A stretch of 64,000 bases of DNA from a virus (Duplodnaviria; Heunggongvirae; Uroviricota; Caudoviricetes). Below the pieces are notes generated by a model. That model was not told where the DNA came from and did not search any database. It saw nothing but the letters and a program-made list of their open reading frames with translations. Shown here piece after piece: positions 8,192 to 58,825 of this stretch (position 1 is the first letter of the stretch; every line of letters begins with the position of its first letter). The DNA lies in the IMG/VR virus record IMGVR_UViG_3300008108_000006. One strand, given 5' to 3'. The position numbers and the translations under genes are program-made.

Positions 8192-8248
8192 AATCTTGTT
8201 ATTTTTCTTTAACAATACAAAGATACTAGAAAAATTCTAACCTACAAA
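8189..8248 (-). repeat. ~60-bp promoter/start cassette, copy 1
   Basis: Identical to 8991-9049 except for one T in a T run. Confidence 0.9.
8218..8248 (-). promoter_or_regulatory. Bacteroidota-type housekeeping promoter TTTG-N19-TATCTTTG
   Basis: Exact -33/-7 consensus and spacing. Confidence 0.8.
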
Positions 8249-9056: not shown

Positions 9057-10064
9057 TTAGATAATTTCCATACTCTCAGAAAATAAGATTTGTTCCACCA
9101 TCGGACAATTATTACGAATAATAATGTTAAACCATTCCTTGAACTTCCCCTTATCTTTGAAGTCAAAGGTAATTCCATCATAATTAAGTTTGAAAACTCC
9201 AACCTTTTCTAAAACATCAACCTTATTCACAACCATATTTGTAACCCCATTTATGTTTGCCGCTTTGATAATCATATCCATATCGGTCCAAGCAATCTGT
9301 CTTGGTCTTCCCGTTGTGGAACCAAACTCATTCCCCACTTCCCGGATTTGATTAAACACATCATCGGGTTGTTCAAAGGTCTTAGCACCAACATAAGTGT
9401 TATACGCCTTACATACACCATAAACCTTTCTAATCTTTTGTGGCGGAACTCCGTTCAATACCGCAGAACCAATCGTACAATGTGATGATGTTACATATGG
9501 ATAATCACCCCAATCAATATCCAATTCAAAACCTTGTGCCCCCTCAAATAATATCCGAACATCAAAATCATTCTTGTGAAATACATTATAGATATCACAT
9601 ACATAATTCCGAATCTCTTCAACATCCTCAGCTCTAATACCCTGACGATAATACTTGTCACGATATGCAGGACCATTACCTGTTTTGGTTGTTCCAATCT
9701 TTGAATCCTTGGAATCCTCGGCAATGTGATCATCGGTAATAATATGAACCCTCTTGTCAATGAATAAGTATTCCCTAACACGAATACCCTTACTCTCCAA
9801 ATCCTTAATCTCACTCATAAGTGAATTGATATTCACAACACACCCAGGCCCAATGATGGATATCAAACCATTAACAATCCCCGATGGTATGTAATGAGTA
9901 ACAATCTTCATATCACCAACATAAATGGTGTGACCAGCGTTTCCACCACCATTATAACGAACAACGTGTGTATATTCACCACTTTGAGTTAAATAATTAC
10001 AAACCTTACCTTTTCCAGTATCACCCGCTTGTAAATCAACTATTACATCTGCAAATTCTAACAT
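9057..10064 (-). CDS. purA: Adenylosuccinate synthetase (short form)
   Basis: GDTGKGK P-loop, GGGNAGHT, EGAQG, DWGDYPYVTSS, GSTTGRPR, NKVD. Confidence 0.93.
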   Translation of the reverse strand: MLEFADVIVDLQAGDTGKGKVCNYLTQSGEYTHVVRYNGGGNAGHTIYVGDMKIVTHYIPSGIVNGLISIIGPGCVVNINSLMSEIKDLESKGIRVREYLFIDKRVHIITDDHIAEDSKDSKIGTTKTGNGPAYRDKYYRQGIRAEDVEEIRNYVCDIYNVFHKNDFDVRILFEGAQGFELDIDWGDYPYVTSSHCTIGSAVLNGVPPQKIRKVYGVCKAYNTYVGAKTFEQPDDVFNQIREVGNEFGSTTGRPRQIAWTDMDMIIKAANINGVTNMVVNKVDVLEKVGVFKLNYDGITFDFKDKGKFKEWFNIIIRNNCPMVEQILFSESMEII

Positions 10065-25843: not shown

Positions 25844-25874
25844 CAAAGATAAAGATAAAAAAGTAAAATCCAAA
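25844..25874 (-). promoter_or_regulatory. Bacteroidota-type promoter TTTG-N19-TATCTTTG
   Basis: Exact consensus, 4 nt before ATG at 25839. Confidence 0.75.
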
Positions 25875-26306: not shown

Positions 26307-26585
26307 TTATCTAGTTTCAAGAGCCTCAATCTTAGATTTTACAATATCTGTCATTTCAACAATTTCCTCCACTTTTGATGAAATAATACACTCCTTAAGT
26401 ATGTTGTAAGGAATATTCAAGAAGAAATCGTACCCATTGAAAAATCTAAGGTCCGAACATTCCACAAAACAACCATTAATCATTTTAAGAAACAGCTTGA
26501 ATTGTGTTCCATCAACAAATCTTTCGTCCAAAATAACACCCAACTCAAGGTGTTGGACTTTAACTCTACTAACCATCTTAATCAT
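26307..26585 (-). CDS. Hypothetical protein
   Basis: ORF track; TATCTTTG at 26590-26597. Confidence 0.65.
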   Translation of the reverse strand: MIKMVSRVKVQHLELGVILDERFVDGTQFKLFLKMINGCFVECSDLRFFNGYDFFLNIPYNILKECIISSKVEEIVEMTDIVKSKIEALETR

Positions 26586-26612
26586 ACAACAAAGATAAGT
26601 ATAGAAATTTAA

Positions 26613-27581
26613 TTATCCAACTATTTCAAAATTTTTTGATTTTTCTTTTGTCACATCAAAATCTCTTAACGATCCACCCGCATTTAATTTCACATAATGT
26701 CTTATGGCATCATCCAAATTTGTAAATTGGTTTTCCTTACTAATATCTTTAATTAAAAATTTAACAGCAATTTCTGAGGCAATCTTAGGATCATTAACCA
26801 AATCAGGATTAGATACCAAATCTTTACCAATCAAATTACCATATTTGGAATAATTACCTTTACCTGTTAATTGGTTCAACCCTCTACCCCTATACATCCA
26901 ACCATCATCACCACCTTGATTCCCCGCAACCTTTGAATAAACCACCTTAAAGAATTCCTTTGGATTGTTTTTTAATTTGGATAATTGATCATCCGATAAA
27001 TGTTTAACTCGTTTTCCAAAAATATTCCTAAGTTTAGAGTTAGATGTTTTACTATATGGATTTTCCGATTGCGGAATAAATCCCGATTCCTTATCAATCG
27101 TTGATAGTATCGCCACTTGGGCATAAGGATTGGTCAAACCAACTTTAGTCATCTCATCAATCATACTATTAACAACACTACCCTTCGACCCCGAATAATT
27201 GTGTTTAATTTTTCCTTTTAATTTTGGTACATCAGTTTTTACCTCTTCTTTATTTGACGTATCAATTGGTGATCCAGGCTTTTCTTGCAAAATACTATTA
27301 AAAAATTCATCAGTGATTTCACCATTAACCTTCAACCCTTTTGCTTTTTGGTATTGTTCAATAAAGTTCTTCATTTCCGAATCGTACTTACCATTCAACT
27401 TAACACCCGATATACCAAAATCTTTAAGTAACTTTTGAATTGCGGTCACTTTAAACCCTTTGTCACCTAATTTTGGATATTCTTTTTTATCCTTCATTGC
27501 TTTAATACCGCTAAGAATTTTTCCCTGCACAAAATCATCCAAACCCAAAAGCTCAATAAATTGTTCAACTAATATTTTCAT
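26613..27581 (-). CDS. Peptidoglycan-binding domain + glycoside hydrolase family 19 endolysin-like enzyme
   Basis: LGDKGFKVTAIQKLL...FQ-like PG-binding domain; KESGF...YRGRGLNQLTGKGNY...NPDLV; start refined to 27581 (TATTTAT upstream). Confidence 0.85.
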   Translation of the reverse strand: MKILVEQFIELLGLDDFVQGKILSGIKAMKDKKEYPKLGDKGFKVTAIQKLLKDFGISGVKLNGKYDSEMKNFIEQYQKAKGLKVNGEITDEFFNSILQEKPGSPIDTSNKEEVKTDVPKLKGKIKHNYSGSKGSVVNSMIDEMTKVGLTNPYAQVAILSTIDKESGFIPQSENPYSKTSNSKLRNIFGKRVKHLSDDQLSKLKNNPKEFFKVVYSKVAGNQGGDDGWMYRGRGLNQLTGKGNYSKYGNLIGKDLVSNPDLVNDPKIASEIAVKFLIKDISKENQFTNLDDAIRHYVKLNAGGSLRDFDVTKEKSKNFEIVG

Positions 27582-27612
27582 AAAAACTTTTAATATAAAT
27601 ACCTTATTAAAC

Positions 27613-27641
27613 AAAAAAACCCATCACAATCGTGATAGGTT
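27613..27641 (-). terminator. Intrinsic terminator of the large ncRNA
   Basis: ACCTATCAC-GATT-GTGATGGGT followed by U tract. Confidence 0.8.
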
Positions 27642-28470
27642 ATATTGGCTAACGCTGAGACTAAACGTTTTGGTTGGTTGCCTTTGGAGGGATTATCCGA
27701 GGTTTGGTTCCCCAATCTTGTCCACATATGTTGCCATACGTATCAACCAGTGTCGGTAACTATCGGTTACCACTCGTTTCGTTGTGACTTACTCCACACT
27801 TACTTATGTCTGTTCAATCTTGCTAGACTGACTAAAGGATGGCCGTCCTACCAGCACTTTCGTTATGAAACCTAACAGACTTGCGGTCTGATTAAGTTCT
27901 TGGTTGACGCAAGGTCCCAAGAATTAGACACCTTTCATCACAACGCCCGAAGGCTTTCGCTTCATCTTGTTTTTAGTTCAAATACAAATTGAGTAGCCGT
28001 GAGTTTTGAAGGACGTGCTTCGGGAGAAGTTTCATATCTTTTGGACACAAAATGCTTCACGACCTTCTGTAAGTCTGCAAACCTACGGTTCATAAGGATT
28101 ACGTTGTTTCACAACTCGGAAACCCTTCAGAACTGGTGCCAAGCCCTACTTCCAATTGCAGTCGGAGTCGAACCTTCACCTTCAACTTTTCCTATTGGTG
28201 TCACCACCTCAACCTCGAGTCTCACTTCTCGAGATGAATAGATTCTCTCAGCGGTTGCCCCCGAGATTCCATCCGTAGTTGATTTGCTTAGTTGTCAAAT
28301 CTTATGATCTGCGAGACTGTCGGTTGCTAAACCATAAAGTCCCATTTAGTCCCGTCACCGGGGTTATCTAATGACGCTAAGCCGCCAATACCGTCGACCT
28401 AATTCCTTGAGAGGGGAAATGGTCTTTTTCAAAGAACGTTGTCGGTTTTGAGTATTATCCGACGTTTTGG
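27613..28470 (-). ncRNA. Large (~855 nt) structured non-coding RNA, GOLLD-like candidate
   Basis: GC-enriched interval lacking a credible ORF, bounded by promoter and terminator; multiple hairpins (GCC-UUCG-GGC, GGTAAC/GTTACC, CAGAC/GTCTG) and long-range pairings; family name inferred from size and phage context only. Confidence 0.7.
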
Positions 28471-28474
28471 ACTA

Positions 28475-28506
28475 CAAAGTTAGAACAACTTTTTCGTTCT
28501 GTCAAG
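28475..28506 (-). promoter_or_regulatory. Bacteroidota-type promoter for the ncRNA (CTTG-N20-TAACTTTG)
   Basis: Perfect -7 element, one mismatch in -33. Confidence 0.65.
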
Positions 28507-28600
28507 TCTTTTTTTGAAATTTTTTTGGGGTAATTTTTATAAATATACCCTAAATCTCAAAAATCTCACTCAACACTACAAAATTACAAACTTTTTTTCA

Positions 28601-29059
28601 TTATGTCAAGATATTTTTGAAAATTTCTTCATTTTCTTTGAAACAAGTATAATGATTGTGGTATGCAAGATGTCTAGCCTCAACTTCCAAGGGGTGTTGT
28701 TCATACCCATACACCTTTAATAACTTCTCATATTTTGTCGCCACAGGTTGCATAGAATGAACATACTCGTGAATGATCGTTTGTATCAAATCACCCAACG
28801 TTTTGTGCATAGTATAGTTGATACCAATGATATTATCTTCGTGATCATACCAACCAAATGTTGTCTTACCATCAGGTCCTTTACTACCTTTAATACAGAA
28901 GTGTGATATTGGTGATTTTCTACGTCTATTCACACCCATATTAGTTTTACACCACCCAATAACAACATCGGCAATCTTTTCAGTTCTTTTCCTACCGATT
29001 CTCTTAACTGAAGTACTAATATTTGTAACCATATCACAAAGATAATTACAAAATTTCAT
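28601..29059 (-). CDS. Putative zincin-like metallopeptidase
   Basis: IIHEYVHSMQ (HExxH) and HPLEVEA. Confidence 0.6.
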   Translation of the reverse strand: MKFCNYLCDMVTNISTSVKRIGRKRTEKIADVVIGWCKTNMGVNRRRKSPISHFCIKGSKGPDGKTTFGWYDHEDNIIGINYTMHKTLGDLIQTIIHEYVHSMQPVATKYEKLLKVYGYEQHPLEVEARHLAYHNHYTCFKENEEIFKNILT

Positions 29060-29260
29060 ACTTCAAAAGTGTTAATGTCGTTTTTTTCAAAAAACCAACA
29101 AAATATCACCTAACAACACCATAAGAACAAAAAAACACCATATTATACACTAAAACGAAAAGTTAATGATATCTTAATAACACACCGAAAAATTCATTTT
29201 ATACAAATCCTTTTTTATTTATTGTTATGGATAAACACTTTTCTACTAAACAATTTAATT

Positions 29261-29800
29261 ATGAAAACACTTTTTACACTACTATTTTCGTTTGTTTTTA
29301 TTTCAATTTCTGTCGCAAAATCACACAAAAACTATGGAACAATAAAATCTCAAAAACTCTACGAATGTATTGAAAAATACTCAGAAGAGTTGGGTGTTCC
29401 CAAACACATCGCTTATAACATAGCAAGACTTGAAACCGGTTACAAAGGACCAACCCACAAAAACTACAACCCACACAGAAGATCAAGATGTGGGGCTGTC
29501 GGTCCAATGCAAATCATACCACGTTACGCAAAAAAACTCGAGAAGAATTTAAGTAACAAAATCTTAATGTATAATATTGAAACGAATGTTAGAATTTCGT
29601 TGAAGATGTTAAAGAAACATTACAACAGGTACCATTCTTGGGAAAAGGCAGTCGCTTGTTACCATAAAGGTAATCCAAGACCTAACAAATATTCAAGATA
29701 TGTTACAACAAATTACAACTACCATCGTAAATGGGATCGGTCCTATAGGAATGATTACCCAAAGTGTGATACGACAGATATAATTTACGCAAACAGATGA
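29261..29800 (+). CDS. Lytic transglycosylase (SLT domain) with signal peptide
   Basis: IARLETG, GAVGPMQII, NIETNVR, AVACYHKG; start refined to MKTLF. Confidence 0.85.
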   Translation: MKTLFTLLFSFVFISISVAKSHKNYGTIKSQKLYECIEKYSEELGVPKHIAYNIARLETGYKGPTHKNYNPHRRSRCGAVGPMQIIPRYAKKLEKNLSNKILMYNIETNVRISLKMLKKHYNRYHSWEKAVACYHKGNPRPNKYSRYVTTNYNYHRKWDRSYRNDYPKCDTTDIIYANR

Positions 29801-29834: not shown

Positions 29835-30425
29835 TTATACAATATCCTTTGACTCAATCAAAGTATATGTAAATGAATTACCGTGTTTATCTCGGGACTT
29901 CCTAATGATTTCCATAAAGGAATCAAAATCCGCCGATCTTTTGAATACTTGGCAACCTTCCGACCAATTTTCTACGTATGTTGAATCAACACCCGCTTTA
30001 TGAATGTTAATACCGAAAACACCTTCTTGGATTTTGTTCTCGTCGTGTTGCATATCTTTATCAGCATCACGATATACTTTCACATTCTTAGCTTGTCTCA
30101 ACGCTTCATACTTACCTTGGTGTAATCCGATTATGTGAGAACTTCTATACTGTCCTTCAACCAATCTTGCAACACCTGCAGCGTTATGATACTCCAACAT
30201 CGCTTTCTTACCGGGATCGGTTGTGATCGTCCATTCATGATACTTCCATTGACCACCAACTTTATAAGATAGTGTAATAGTATCATCAAACGCATTCGTT
30301 ACTTTATCACCTGTTGCTGAATTTCTTACTCCTACAATATTAACATCATAGTCGGTATCAGAATCAAACCACTTATAACCTTTTGTCTCAACCGCTTTTT
30401 GGATTTTCTCTCTACTGTAAGCCAT
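29835..30425 (-). CDS. Putative cell-wall hydrolase (L,D-transpeptidase/YkuD-like catalytic motif)
   Basis: GINIHKAG...NWSEGCQV fits HxxG...SxGC; adjacent to holin-like gene. Confidence 0.55.
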   Translation of the reverse strand: MAYSREKIQKAVETKGYKWFDSDTDYDVNIVGVRNSATGDKVTNAFDDTITLSYKVGGQWKYHEWTITTDPGKKAMLEYHNAAGVARLVEGQYRSSHIIGLHQGKYEALRQAKNVKVYRDADKDMQHDENKIQEGVFGINIHKAGVDSTYVENWSEGCQVFKRSADFDSFMEIIRKSRDKHGNSFTYTLIESKDIV

Positions 30426-38946: not shown

Positions 38947-38979
38947 CAAAGATAGTTAAAAACTATTTATTGTAACAAA
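38947..38979 (-). promoter_or_regulatory. Bacteroidota-type promoter TTTG-N21-TATCTTTG
   Basis: Consensus match upstream of 38892. Confidence 0.55.
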
Positions 38980-45176: not shown

Positions 45177-45372
45177 AAATTACTTTTTATTCAAATATAA
45201 GAATAAAAAACGACAAAAGCAACTTAATAAACAACTTTTTTTCCTTCCTTACGTGAATAAACTTTCTTGGACTTAACCACCTGTTGGCTAGTCTTACGAC
45301 GAATGATTTGTTTAATATGTCTCAATGACAAATCCGGTAATTTATTTTCCATTGCTTTTTCCCTTTAATACG

Positions 45373-56409: not shown

Positions 56410-56439
56410 GGGGAAGATGTAACTCTTCCCCATTTTTTT
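56410..56439 (+). terminator. Intrinsic terminator
   Basis: GGGGAAGA...TCTTCCCC followed by U tract. Confidence 0.75.
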
Positions 56440-56443
56440 AACA

Positions 56444-58825
56444 TCACTGACTTACTTTTGAAATGTTATCAGTTTTTGTGATCTTAACAGTATTGTTAGC
56501 CCACTGACTAACCAATGGATTGTGTGTGATTACAAAGATCTTTTCAAAGTAATCTTTAATCTTACTGAAGAACTCACCAACCATCTCAAGGTTTTCATTA
56601 GATATCTTTCCAAATACCTCGTCAAATACGATTATGTTCGGTTTTGGTAATGAACATACTTTACTTAACACCGCTCTCAACGCCAAAGAAGCAATTGTCT
56701 TCTCATAACCTGATCCTGATACCATCAGTTTTTCAACACCAGTTCCGTTATCAATCATAACAAACTCAACCTCGTTCTTATCGTTAATTCTAACTTCCAA
56801 TTTGAAGTAAGAACTATCTTGTAACAATCGTTGTAGTTCTGAGTTAATCAACGGCATCATCGTTTTCATAATCATCTTTGATATTCCATTCTTTCCAAAG
56901 ATATCCAAATAGATCTTGTAGATCTTTTCTCTTTCAAACTCCAACGCAATCTTACTGATTAGGTCCCGATTTTTTTCAATCTTCTTAACCAATAAATCGT
57001 TTTCATTTTGAATTTGAGATAAATCCCTTTCAATCTTACCCTTCTCCAACTTCAAGTCATCCAACCTCATAGTTGCTTTCACAATTTGACCATCGAGATT
57101 TTTGTTCTCCTCGATCTTATTTTGAACATCATAAAACTTTCCGAGTTTATCTTTGATTTGTTGGATCTTCATATCATAGTTTTGAATCTCCACCTCATAC
57201 TTTTCTCGGATAAGTTTGTTCCTTTCATATTGATCAAACTCGCGTTTTAGTTGTTGGAATTGTAGGTCACCTTGGTTCAACTCATTAAGATTGTTTTCAA
57301 AACCTATTTGTTGTTCCTTAAGTCCGTCCATCTGTTCTAACTTGGATTTTGTCAGTTCAGCATTCAAAAGTTCAATACCACAATGCTCACATTTGATTCC
57401 CCCACTCACAGAACGAGCCAATACTTCCAAGTCTTTCAATTTAACATTAACCTCAATTTTACTTGATGTTACTTGTTTAATATTTTCTCGGATTTTATCG
57501 TGCTCTGTTTCGTTGTAGAACTCACTCGGTGGAACAACATTAACACCATCCATTAACTTTTTGGTCTCCTCTTTCTTATTCTGAAAAACAAGGATCTCAC
57601 CATTTAAGTTTTCCGGGTTGATCAATGAGAGTTCTTTATCAATGTCAGTGTGTTTCTTCAACATCAACTCATCACGGAATTTTTCACCACGAGATAAACG
57701 ATCGTTAGTGTCTTCCAATTTACCATCCAACACCATCTTCTGATCGTTGTTTGTGGTAATCTTTTCATTAGACCCAACAATCTCATCTTCCAACTGCTGT
57801 GTTGAATAAAGATTTGACATCATCGTCTTTGAAAAACTTGAATATAGTTCTTTACCTACCTCTTCTTTTTTCTTCAAAAACTCCAACCCCAAGAATTTGC
57901 TTAATACTTGTCCTCTTGCCGTTGGTTTAGATTCCAATAAGTCCTCCAAGTTAGATGCGGTGGTTAAGATCGTCATCAAAAAGTCCTCCATCTCACCGAT
58001 AGAATTCTTAATGAACTTTTCAGTTTCACGTCTTTGTTCTCCAGTATAATTCTGAAGTTCCCCATTAGGTAGTTTCTTAAAGAAGTCCAACTCAGTCTTA
58101 ACATTCCATTCACCTGATTTTGCTTTCTTCCTCTCCAAGTTACGAACAATTAAGTAATCTTCCCCATCAATAGTAATCTCACCCTTCACACTTACCTTAT
58201 CCTTATCTGTAAATCTGTTGAAGATCTCCTCAGATTTGGTTGTCTTGGTCGTGGTGTTGAAGAATAAGAACATCAATAAATCCACACTTAATACCGTCTT
58301 ACCTCCGAAGTTGGGTGGGTTTGATTCAATCACGGTGATACCATTACACTTTTCAAAATCCAAAACCTGTCCATCACCGTATGATAAAAAGTTTGAAAAC
58401 TCAATCTTTCTAATATACCACTTCTTAAACGCCGCATATTCTTCCTCCGACGCAGCAATCTTATTCTCAACCATTTGGTCAATACTCAACACCTCTTCTG
58501 AATGTCGTTCCAAATCCTTGGCTTTCAGATAATTCTTCATCATCTCAACCTGGTAGTTACGATCCATAATGTTAAATGAAACATCAACCGTCTGCATAGT
58601 GTCGTCATCTTCGCCAGCAATTACCTTGGTAATAACATTCACGTTCGTTGTGTTGTATTTCTTTTGAAAATACAGCTTAACACTCTTGATTCTCTCCTGT
58701 GTAAAGTTCTCAGGTGAATCTTGCCATACCACTTGAACGTACGGATTATTTAGTTTATCAATTTCTATCTTCTTACTCATAAATTCGTAATTAAAATCAG
58801 GCTTGGGGTTGAATAGATCCCACAT
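56444..58825 (-). CDS. sbcC: SbcC/Rad50/T4 gp46-like SMC ATPase
   Basis: Walker A NFGGKT, coiled coil with CEHC hook, signature SGSGYEK, Walker B VFDE, H-loop ITH. Confidence 0.9.
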   Translation of the reverse strand: MWDLFNPKPDFNYEFMSKKIEIDKLNNPYVQVVWQDSPENFTQERIKSVKLYFQKKYNTTNVNVITKVIAGEDDDTMQTVDVSFNIMDRNYQVEMMKNYLKAKDLERHSEEVLSIDQMVENKIAASEEEYAAFKKWYIRKIEFSNFLSYGDGQVLDFEKCNGITVIESNPPNFGGKTVLSVDLLMFLFFNTTTKTTKSEEIFNRFTDKDKVSVKGEITIDGEDYLIVRNLERKKAKSGEWNVKTELDFFKKLPNGELQNYTGEQRRETEKFIKNSIGEMEDFLMTILTTASNLEDLLESKPTARGQVLSKFLGLEFLKKKEEVGKELYSSFSKTMMSNLYSTQQLEDEIVGSNEKITTNNDQKMVLDGKLEDTNDRLSRGEKFRDELMLKKHTDIDKELSLINPENLNGEILVFQNKKEETKKLMDGVNVVPPSEFYNETEHDKIRENIKQVTSSKIEVNVKLKDLEVLARSVSGGIKCEHCGIELLNAELTKSKLEQMDGLKEQQIGFENNLNELNQGDLQFQQLKREFDQYERNKLIREKYEVEIQNYDMKIQQIKDKLGKFYDVQNKIEENKNLDGQIVKATMRLDDLKLEKGKIERDLSQIQNENDLLVKKIEKNRDLISKIALEFEREKIYKIYLDIFGKNGISKMIMKTMMPLINSELQRLLQDSSYFKLEVRINDKNEVEFVMIDNGTGVEKLMVSGSGYEKTIASLALRAVLSKVCSLPKPNIIVFDEVFGKISNENLEMVGEFFSKIKDYFEKIFVITHNPLVSQWANNTVKITKTDNISKVSQ

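Follow-up and report, generated by a model that had tools for sequence, protein, structure and literature searches.

A minus-strand gene for GOLLD RNA in an uncultured phage

The DNA analyzed here (the window, 64 kb in length) represents part of the genome of a large, uncultured phage whose nearest cultured relatives are remote. Taken as a whole, the noncoding interval 27613-28470 within it is almost certainly best explained as a gene for GOLLD RNA, encoded on the minus strand. The RNA is a new and divergent copy of a family that is already known (Rfam RF02032; Weinberg et al. 2009, as cited in PMC12286853) and for which the solved example is env-38 (Kretsch et al. 2025, PMC12286853); it does not found a class of its own. 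Its membership of the family, its fold and its conservation are all shown by the results below.

The original prediction, made from the letters of the window, had described a GC-enriched island carrying a structured, GOLLD-like RNA. The GC content of the region ~27600-28500 is indeed 42-46%, compared with 30-35% in its flanks and 32% over the whole window. ORFs of more than 99 aa are absent from 27613-28470, and no further ORF-free GC-rich island was found in the 64 kb. The minimum free energy of the 753-nt core was -232.6 kcal/mol, compared with -204.3 +/- 7.9 for shuffled sequences (z = -3.56), and this more stable folding, together with covariation in both domains, confirmed the island as a structured RNA. 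All of the sequence elements quoted in the original prediction are present where it placed them, given as minus-strand letters with plus-strand coordinates. The layout of the RNA, in transcript order, is as follows:

28391..28469, minus strand: variable 5′ leader, from the predicted start to the conserved core; aligns poorly among relatives and holds a C-rich motif
28068..28390, minus strand: GOLLD 5′ domain, clade-specific version (nhmmer, profile, covariation)
27652..28067, minus strand: GOLLD 3′ domain, universally conserved (RF02032 positions 1-416, covariation)
27951..28007, minus strand: A/U-rich variable linker after the first 3′-domain hairpin (unpaired consensus in the Rfam alignment)
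27652..27668, minus strand: terminal hairpin whose loop is the conserved UCUCAG and with which the GOLLD model ends (Rfam alignment positions 401-416)

Scanning of the whole 64-kb window against Rfam 15 with cmscan identified RF02032 at 28067..27652 on the minus strand with a score of 277.3 bits (gathering score, 150) and an E-value of 4.5e-78. The match covers model positions 1-416 of 416 and is not truncated, and GOLLD was the sole Rfam 15 family to exceed its own gathering score in the window, ROOL and OLE giving no match at that level. A permissive re-scan of 27500-28650, with E-values up to 10 accepted, again returned no ROOL, OLE or tRNA, and the extra matches were at chance level. The Infernal search with GOLLD, ROOL and OLE models that had been proposed as a check therefore gave a full-length GOLLD, in support of the family suggested in the original prediction, and the fallback of the original prediction, a new large RNA class, does not apply to an RNA with a full-length RF02032 match. 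Like GOLLD, ROOL is a large phage RNA that forms an RNA-only cage, in its case an 8-mer (PMC12286853); its sequence and fold are unrelated to those of the window RNA.

The interval is phage-encoded, as judged by PHROG matches in the window to an endolysin, an SbcC-like nuclease subunit and a PurZ-like synthetase, and by the origin of all relatives from viral contigs.

Relatives of the window RNA and the 5′ domain

The alignment published with the cryo-EM structure covers the conserved 3′ domain only, as the Rfam model does (PMC12286853). GOLLD loci were gathered from viral contigs using a pattern derived from two conserved core elements, which gave 72 loci, ~46 of them with further core motifs. 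An alignment (A1) was prepared of 32 distinct full-length sequences, comprising the window and 31 relatives from viral contigs. Other routes to relatives gave little: a single-sequence nhmmer search with the 3′ domain against the first loci gathered produced one weak match, and the endolysin used as a probe for related phages led to one distant locus. The pattern ATAATCCCTCNAAAG was discarded as a locus finder, nearly all of its 118 loci being chance matches (3 passed the motif check). All 12 relatives that were checked against Rfam proved to be GOLLD, with scores of 289-320 bits. Within the clade the window copy diverges the most, with the lowest bit score and 63-72% identity to its nearest relatives.

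The region upstream of the Rfam match, that is the 5′ domain, was used as an nhmmer query and retrieved 40 other GOLLD loci with E-values of 1e-44 to 1e-59. A profile of the 5′ domain matched 41 loci, in each of which it directly abuts the 3′ domain. The same profile gave no match in 14 more distant loci that were matched by the 3′-domain profile, which is expected for a variable domain; because these loci are missed, cap geometry and subunit number could differ. The clade's 3′-domain profile recovers the published GOLLD of Mycobacterium phage LilhomieP (MK937612) and the annotated GOLLD of Vibrio phage 294E48.1 (MW824419). In both, the 3′ domain is the same as that of the window's clade and lies at the published or annotated coordinates, while the regions upstream are undetected by the clade's 5′-domain profile.

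The first 70 nt of the core were compared, by eye only, with the env-38 construct given in the supplement of the structural paper. The order of landmarks is alike, with a terminal hairpin, an A-rich junction, a GNRA-capped hairpin and the GGUUUAGC segment following one another, and the GOLLD core is therefore taken to start at ~28390. As in env-38, the conserved 3′ domain follows immediately on a 5′ domain that is structured but less conserved, and the two RNAs have in common an A/U-rich linker, self-complementary kissing loops, a UCUCAG terminal loop and a phage origin. Unlike env-38, the window RNA has a 5′ domain core of ~323 nt rather than ~415 nt, making it ~90 nt shorter by an env-38 count that comes from an error-containing PDF extraction, and tRNAs are absent both from it and from its surroundings.

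It could be argued that the interval encodes a new large structured RNA class, unrelated to GOLLD, ROOL and OLE, since the upstream 400 nt lie outside every Rfam model and since blastn in distant mode found no match to the 1-kb region in 50,697 phage records. However, the 3′ half is a complete GOLLD match, and the full-length RF02032 hit already refutes such a class; in 41 of the 41 loci that carry the upstream half, a GOLLD 3′ domain adjoins it without a gap, and the opening of this half follows the landmark order of env-38 as seen by eye. The empty blastn result is explained by GOLLD being too divergent for sequence search, and a new class is considered exceedingly improbable.

Two RNAs might also be envisaged, a GOLLD 3′ domain and an independent upstream RNA that merely adjoins it, because the two domains fold separately in the solved structure (PMC12286853) and the 5′-domain profile is absent from 14 other GOLLD loci. 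Very little likelihood is attached to this arrangement: around the junction at 28067/28068 the minus strand is free of promoter-like and terminator-like sites, the junction shows no length variation across the 41 loci, and each published GOLLD is one RNA of ~800 nt whose 5′ domain is variable (PMC12286853). A single GOLLD RNA with two contiguous domains is the reading followed below.

Covariation and fold

The RNAalifold consensus for the 32 sequences contained 194 pairs, 99 of which had compensatory changes. The 5′ domain comprised 84 pairs, with 99.0% of cells paired and 44 compensatory pairs, and the 3′ domain comprised 105 pairs, with 98.5% of cells paired and 51 compensatory pairs. Controls were prepared by sliding the 3′ partners by 1-3 columns and by 200 column shuffles. 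For the 5′ domain the slid partners gave 6-16 compensatory pairs and the shuffles at most 34, and for the 3′ domain the corresponding values were 8-16 and at most 42. Since the covariation figures are similar, the 5′ domain is supported as well as the 3′ domain modelled by Rfam, and covariation excludes an Rfam score arising from composition alone. The covariation analysis of homologues that had been suggested thus came out in favor of both halves of the RNA.

The individual pairings named in the original prediction fared unevenly. Three local helices, GGTAAC/GTTACC (27755-27771), CAGAC/GTCTG (27876-27890) and TTCTTGG/CCAAGAA (27897-27923), are helices of the GOLLD model and covary among the relatives. 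A GCC-UUCG-GGC hairpin (27945-27954) was not upheld, the string being nearly invariant, its outer pair in conflict with a GOLLD helix and an inner pair broken in 5 of 32 relatives. The supposed terminal stem between TATTGGC (28384-28390) and GCCAATA (27643-27649) forms 7 of 7 pairs in the window only and 0-4 of 7 elsewhere (30.5% of cells overall); the 5′ strand, TATTGGC, is part of a local hairpin whose closing pair covaries through CG, GC, AU and UA.

A second long-range pairing, CGCTGAGA with TCTCAGCG, also failed: it stays 91% pairable because both strands barely vary, and there are zero compensatory changes between these near-invariant strands. In the consensus its 5′ strand sits in covarying local helices and its 3′ strand is the conserved terminal loop. 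The T-loop-like GGTTCGACTCC proved to be one strand of a covarying helix together with an inner hairpin (columns 357-392). No tRNA or T-arm, either as a 5-bp stem with a 7-nt loop or as a cloverleaf, was found for it by ARAGORN, and there was no Rfam tRNA match.

The stem of the terminal UCUCAG hairpin covaries (AU/GC and GC/UA). In the solved GOLLD, loop L27 organizes seven regions of the 3′ domain (PMC12286853). The linker at 27951..28007 differs in length among the relatives; GOLLD linkers sometimes hold tRNAs (PMC12286853) and the one in the window is tRNA-free by ARAGORN. Complementarity between a variable hairpin loop of the 3′ domain and the linker, a possible L20-J13/15 contact, was marginal, with a sum of 129 compared with 119.9 +/- 4.1 and with inconsistent positions. 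Pairing of the C-rich motif of the leader with an AAAGGG junction was rejected, being no better than that of shuffled leaders.

Candidate kissing loops and a cage-type assembly

Two neighboring hairpins of the 3′ domain carry self-complementary loops:

27836..27849, minus strand: hairpin HA (loop 27846..27839), self-complementary GGCC; candidate symmetric inter-chain kissing loop
27814..27831, minus strand: hairpin HB (loop 27826..27819), central GC; candidate symmetric kissing loop

The HA loop contains a 4-nt palindrome in 27 of the 32 sequences, as GGCC (23), UGCA (3) or AGCU (1), and retention of a G/C-containing palindrome through such switches is seen nowhere else among the loops of the alignment. 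Because the adjacent bases cannot pair within one chain, these palindrome-keeping switches are best explained by pairing between chains. The center of the HB loop likewise switches among the relatives, being GC in 28 sequences and CG in 4. In the window the HB loop has an extra base that is unique against the other 31 sequences and gives CUAGCAAG. It was also observed that the extra base of HB, together with the closing C (27819-27826), produces the palindrome CUAG. A further difference from the solved GOLLD is that the loop equivalent to its conserved CGCAA loop is, in the window RNA, a 6-nt loop with a 4-nt palindrome.

In the structural study, L21a (bridge B8) shows a GC/CG switch across homologues, and L21b was too conserved in the alignment used there to be tested (PMC12286853). 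HA probably corresponds to L21b and HB to L21a. At the level of sequence, then, the self-complementary loops expected for GOLLD kissing contacts are present, and the loop pattern supports a putative cage-type assembly for the window's clade.

The env-38 RNA forms an RNA-only homo-14-mer cage with D7 symmetry that is stable at nanomolar RNA, and in this cage the 5′ domains are the caps, the 3′ domains are the rings and symmetric kissing loops join the halves (PMC12286853). By homology with env-38, we infer cage formation for the window RNA, as we do its transcript ends and timing: many copies would assemble, protein-free, into a closed cage. The env-38 14-mer consists of two seven-membered half-shells, and in an equivalent assembly the 5′ domains of the window RNA would be the caps, its 3′ domains would be the rings, and the self-complementary 3′-domain loops of opposite halves would kiss and so close the cage. 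The job of such a cage could possibly be, for example, to hold or sequester some macromolecule.

Transcription signals

The original prediction had placed the island between a promoter and a terminator. Candidates for both signals were found, the promoter box TAACTTTG (28482..28475) lying just outside the proposed end at 28470:

28475..28482, minus strand: candidate promoter -7 box TAACTTTG, an exact match of the TAnnTTTG type; predicted start near 28469
27608..27641, minus strand: intrinsic terminator (hairpin 27641..27618), in which a stem of 10 bp with a 4-nt loop is followed by a U tract; strong in the terminator scan

The transcript would start at ~28469, just after the TAACTTTG box, and would end at ~27610 at the terminator, giving a length of ~860 nt for which both ends are predicted only; the conserved core, 28390..27650, measures 741 nt. 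In order, the transcript would consist of a leader of ~80 nt, the 323-nt 5′ domain (28390..28068) and the 416-nt 3′ domain (28067..27652).

TAnnTTTG is the -7 promoter element of Bacteroidota, and because the box is of this type we infer a Bacteroidota host. Among the relatives, L140, L143, L128, L155 and the L185 group have TATCTTTG boxes similarly placed upstream. Within the window the TAnnTTTG box is modestly enriched (118 occurrences compared with 95 +/- 9). Boxes of this kind were also noted a few bases before minus-strand gene starts, at 26590-26597, 25844-25851, 8218-8225, 38947-38954 and 45192-45199 (all on the minus strand). Boxes so close to gene starts fit putative Bacteroidota-style promoters with very short leaders.

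At the other end of the RNA, the UCUCAG hairpin is followed in most of the relatives that reach far enough by a hairpin and U tract of their own, and compensatory changes occur in the aligned pairs of the terminator stem (columns 966-983). A discrete transcription unit is therefore predicted, as read from promoter and terminator signals that are themselves predicted and comparatively conserved.

The leader of the window RNA contains the word GTTCTTTG at 28437..28430 on the minus strand, and in ~22 of 32 relatives GTTCTTTG(A) precedes the core, its distance ranging from -15 to -93; those with a GTTCTTTG(A)A word include L134, L159, L168 and L185. As a general promoter word GTTCTTTG was rejected, since it is not enriched in the window (7 matches compared with 3.0 +/- 2.0). 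Its role might be that of an alternative promoter box, of a leader element or of a processing site.

Gene neighborhood and tRNA context

Three genes of the cell-wall hydrolase type surround the GOLLD gene in the window. These are listed here with a 92-aa protein gene found beside GOLLD in relatives and with a more distant synthetase gene:

26613-27581, minus strand: endolysin with PG_binding_1 and GH19 domains, directly downstream of GOLLD
29222-29800, plus strand: SLT transglycosylase, upstream of GOLLD
29835-30425, minus strand: endolysin-like gene with a phrog_3000 match, upstream of GOLLD
26307-26585, minus strand: 92-aa soluble protein, directly downstream of GOLLD in many relatives (~17-25 loci), with a median gap of ~65 nt
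9057-10064, minus strand: PurZ-type adenylosuccinate-synthetase homologue (phrog_1211, E 6.6e-71)

The window differs from known GOLLD loci in that its copy is surrounded by genes for cell-wall hydrolases and preceded by a candidate promoter box of the Bacteroidota type. An SbcC-like gene was also recognized in the window by PHROG, and the PurZ-like gene is a hint that 2-aminoadenine may take the place of adenine in the phage DNA.

The position of the endolysin, on the same strand with its ATG (27581) ~27 nt past the U tract of the terminator, raises the question of whether the RNA might instead be a long structured 5′ UTR leader controlling that gene. No promoter is evident between the two, and read-through may reach the endolysin. 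Nevertheless, a strong terminator separates GOLLD from the endolysin, in most relatives an endolysin homologue lies upstream of GOLLD with the different, 92-aa gene after it, and elsewhere GOLLD occurs in tRNA islands without an endolysin. A leader function is accordingly judged highly improbable, and the interval is treated here as a GOLLD RNA gene in its own right.

The relatives share a syntenic block of a NUDIX hydrolase, an endolysin, GOLLD and the 92-aa protein; in the window the endolysin is inserted between GOLLD and the 92-aa gene. As the whole block is syntenic, the adjacency of GOLLD and its neighbors reflects shared phage lineage and not a specific linkage. For the same reason the case for the 92-aa protein as a specific partner of GOLLD was weakened. 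This protein was also rejected as a holin; it lacks a hydrophobic segment and matches neither Pfam nor PHROG.

Expression of GOLLD rises toward lysis in another host (PMC12286853), and the window GOLLD would probably be made late in infection, together with the neighboring cell-wall-degrading enzymes.

ARAGORN found 0 tRNA genes in the 64-kb window, so that the usual tRNA-island setting of GOLLD, which is frequent and not obligatory, is absent here. No tRNA was present within the fetched flanks of 35 of the 40 related loci. In the other five a tRNA-Met lies directly upstream of GOLLD (L168, 8985-9059; L134, 11069-11143; L159, 1697-1771; L170; L169), which is the arrangement in env-38 (PMC12286853). 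The GOLLDs of LilhomieP and 294E48.1, unlike the window copy, are within arrays of 5-7 tRNA genes. In the LilhomieP record (L193), the annotation at 56424-56567, just upstream of GOLLD, gives a CDS for a 'hypothetical protein' and a tRNA-Asn; this stretch is where a 5′ domain would lie, the published GOLLD 3′ domain being at 56586-56999.

Implications for the GOLLD family

Only two natural RNAs, GOLLD among them, are known to form closed cages that are free of protein. The single copy in the window adds little in itself, and the value lies in the set gathered around it. This set offers a full-length alignment of 32 sequences, which lends the poorly described 5′ domain as much covariation support as the 3′ domain, and the GGCC/UGCA/AGCU covariation of a self-pairing loop that is invariant in the alignment of the structural paper (PMC12286853).

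It is conceivable, if doubtful, that this lineage constitutes a distinct GOLLD subtype, one that is tRNA-free, has a compact 5′ cap and an enlarged palindromic kissing loop, and is fixed in a cell-wall hydrolase module. Were that so, a different subunit number might follow, or a role in the lysis phase rather than in tRNA or translation biology. For the family in general, a setting without tRNAs and beside lysis enzymes argues that the tRNA association is not essential to the role of GOLLD.
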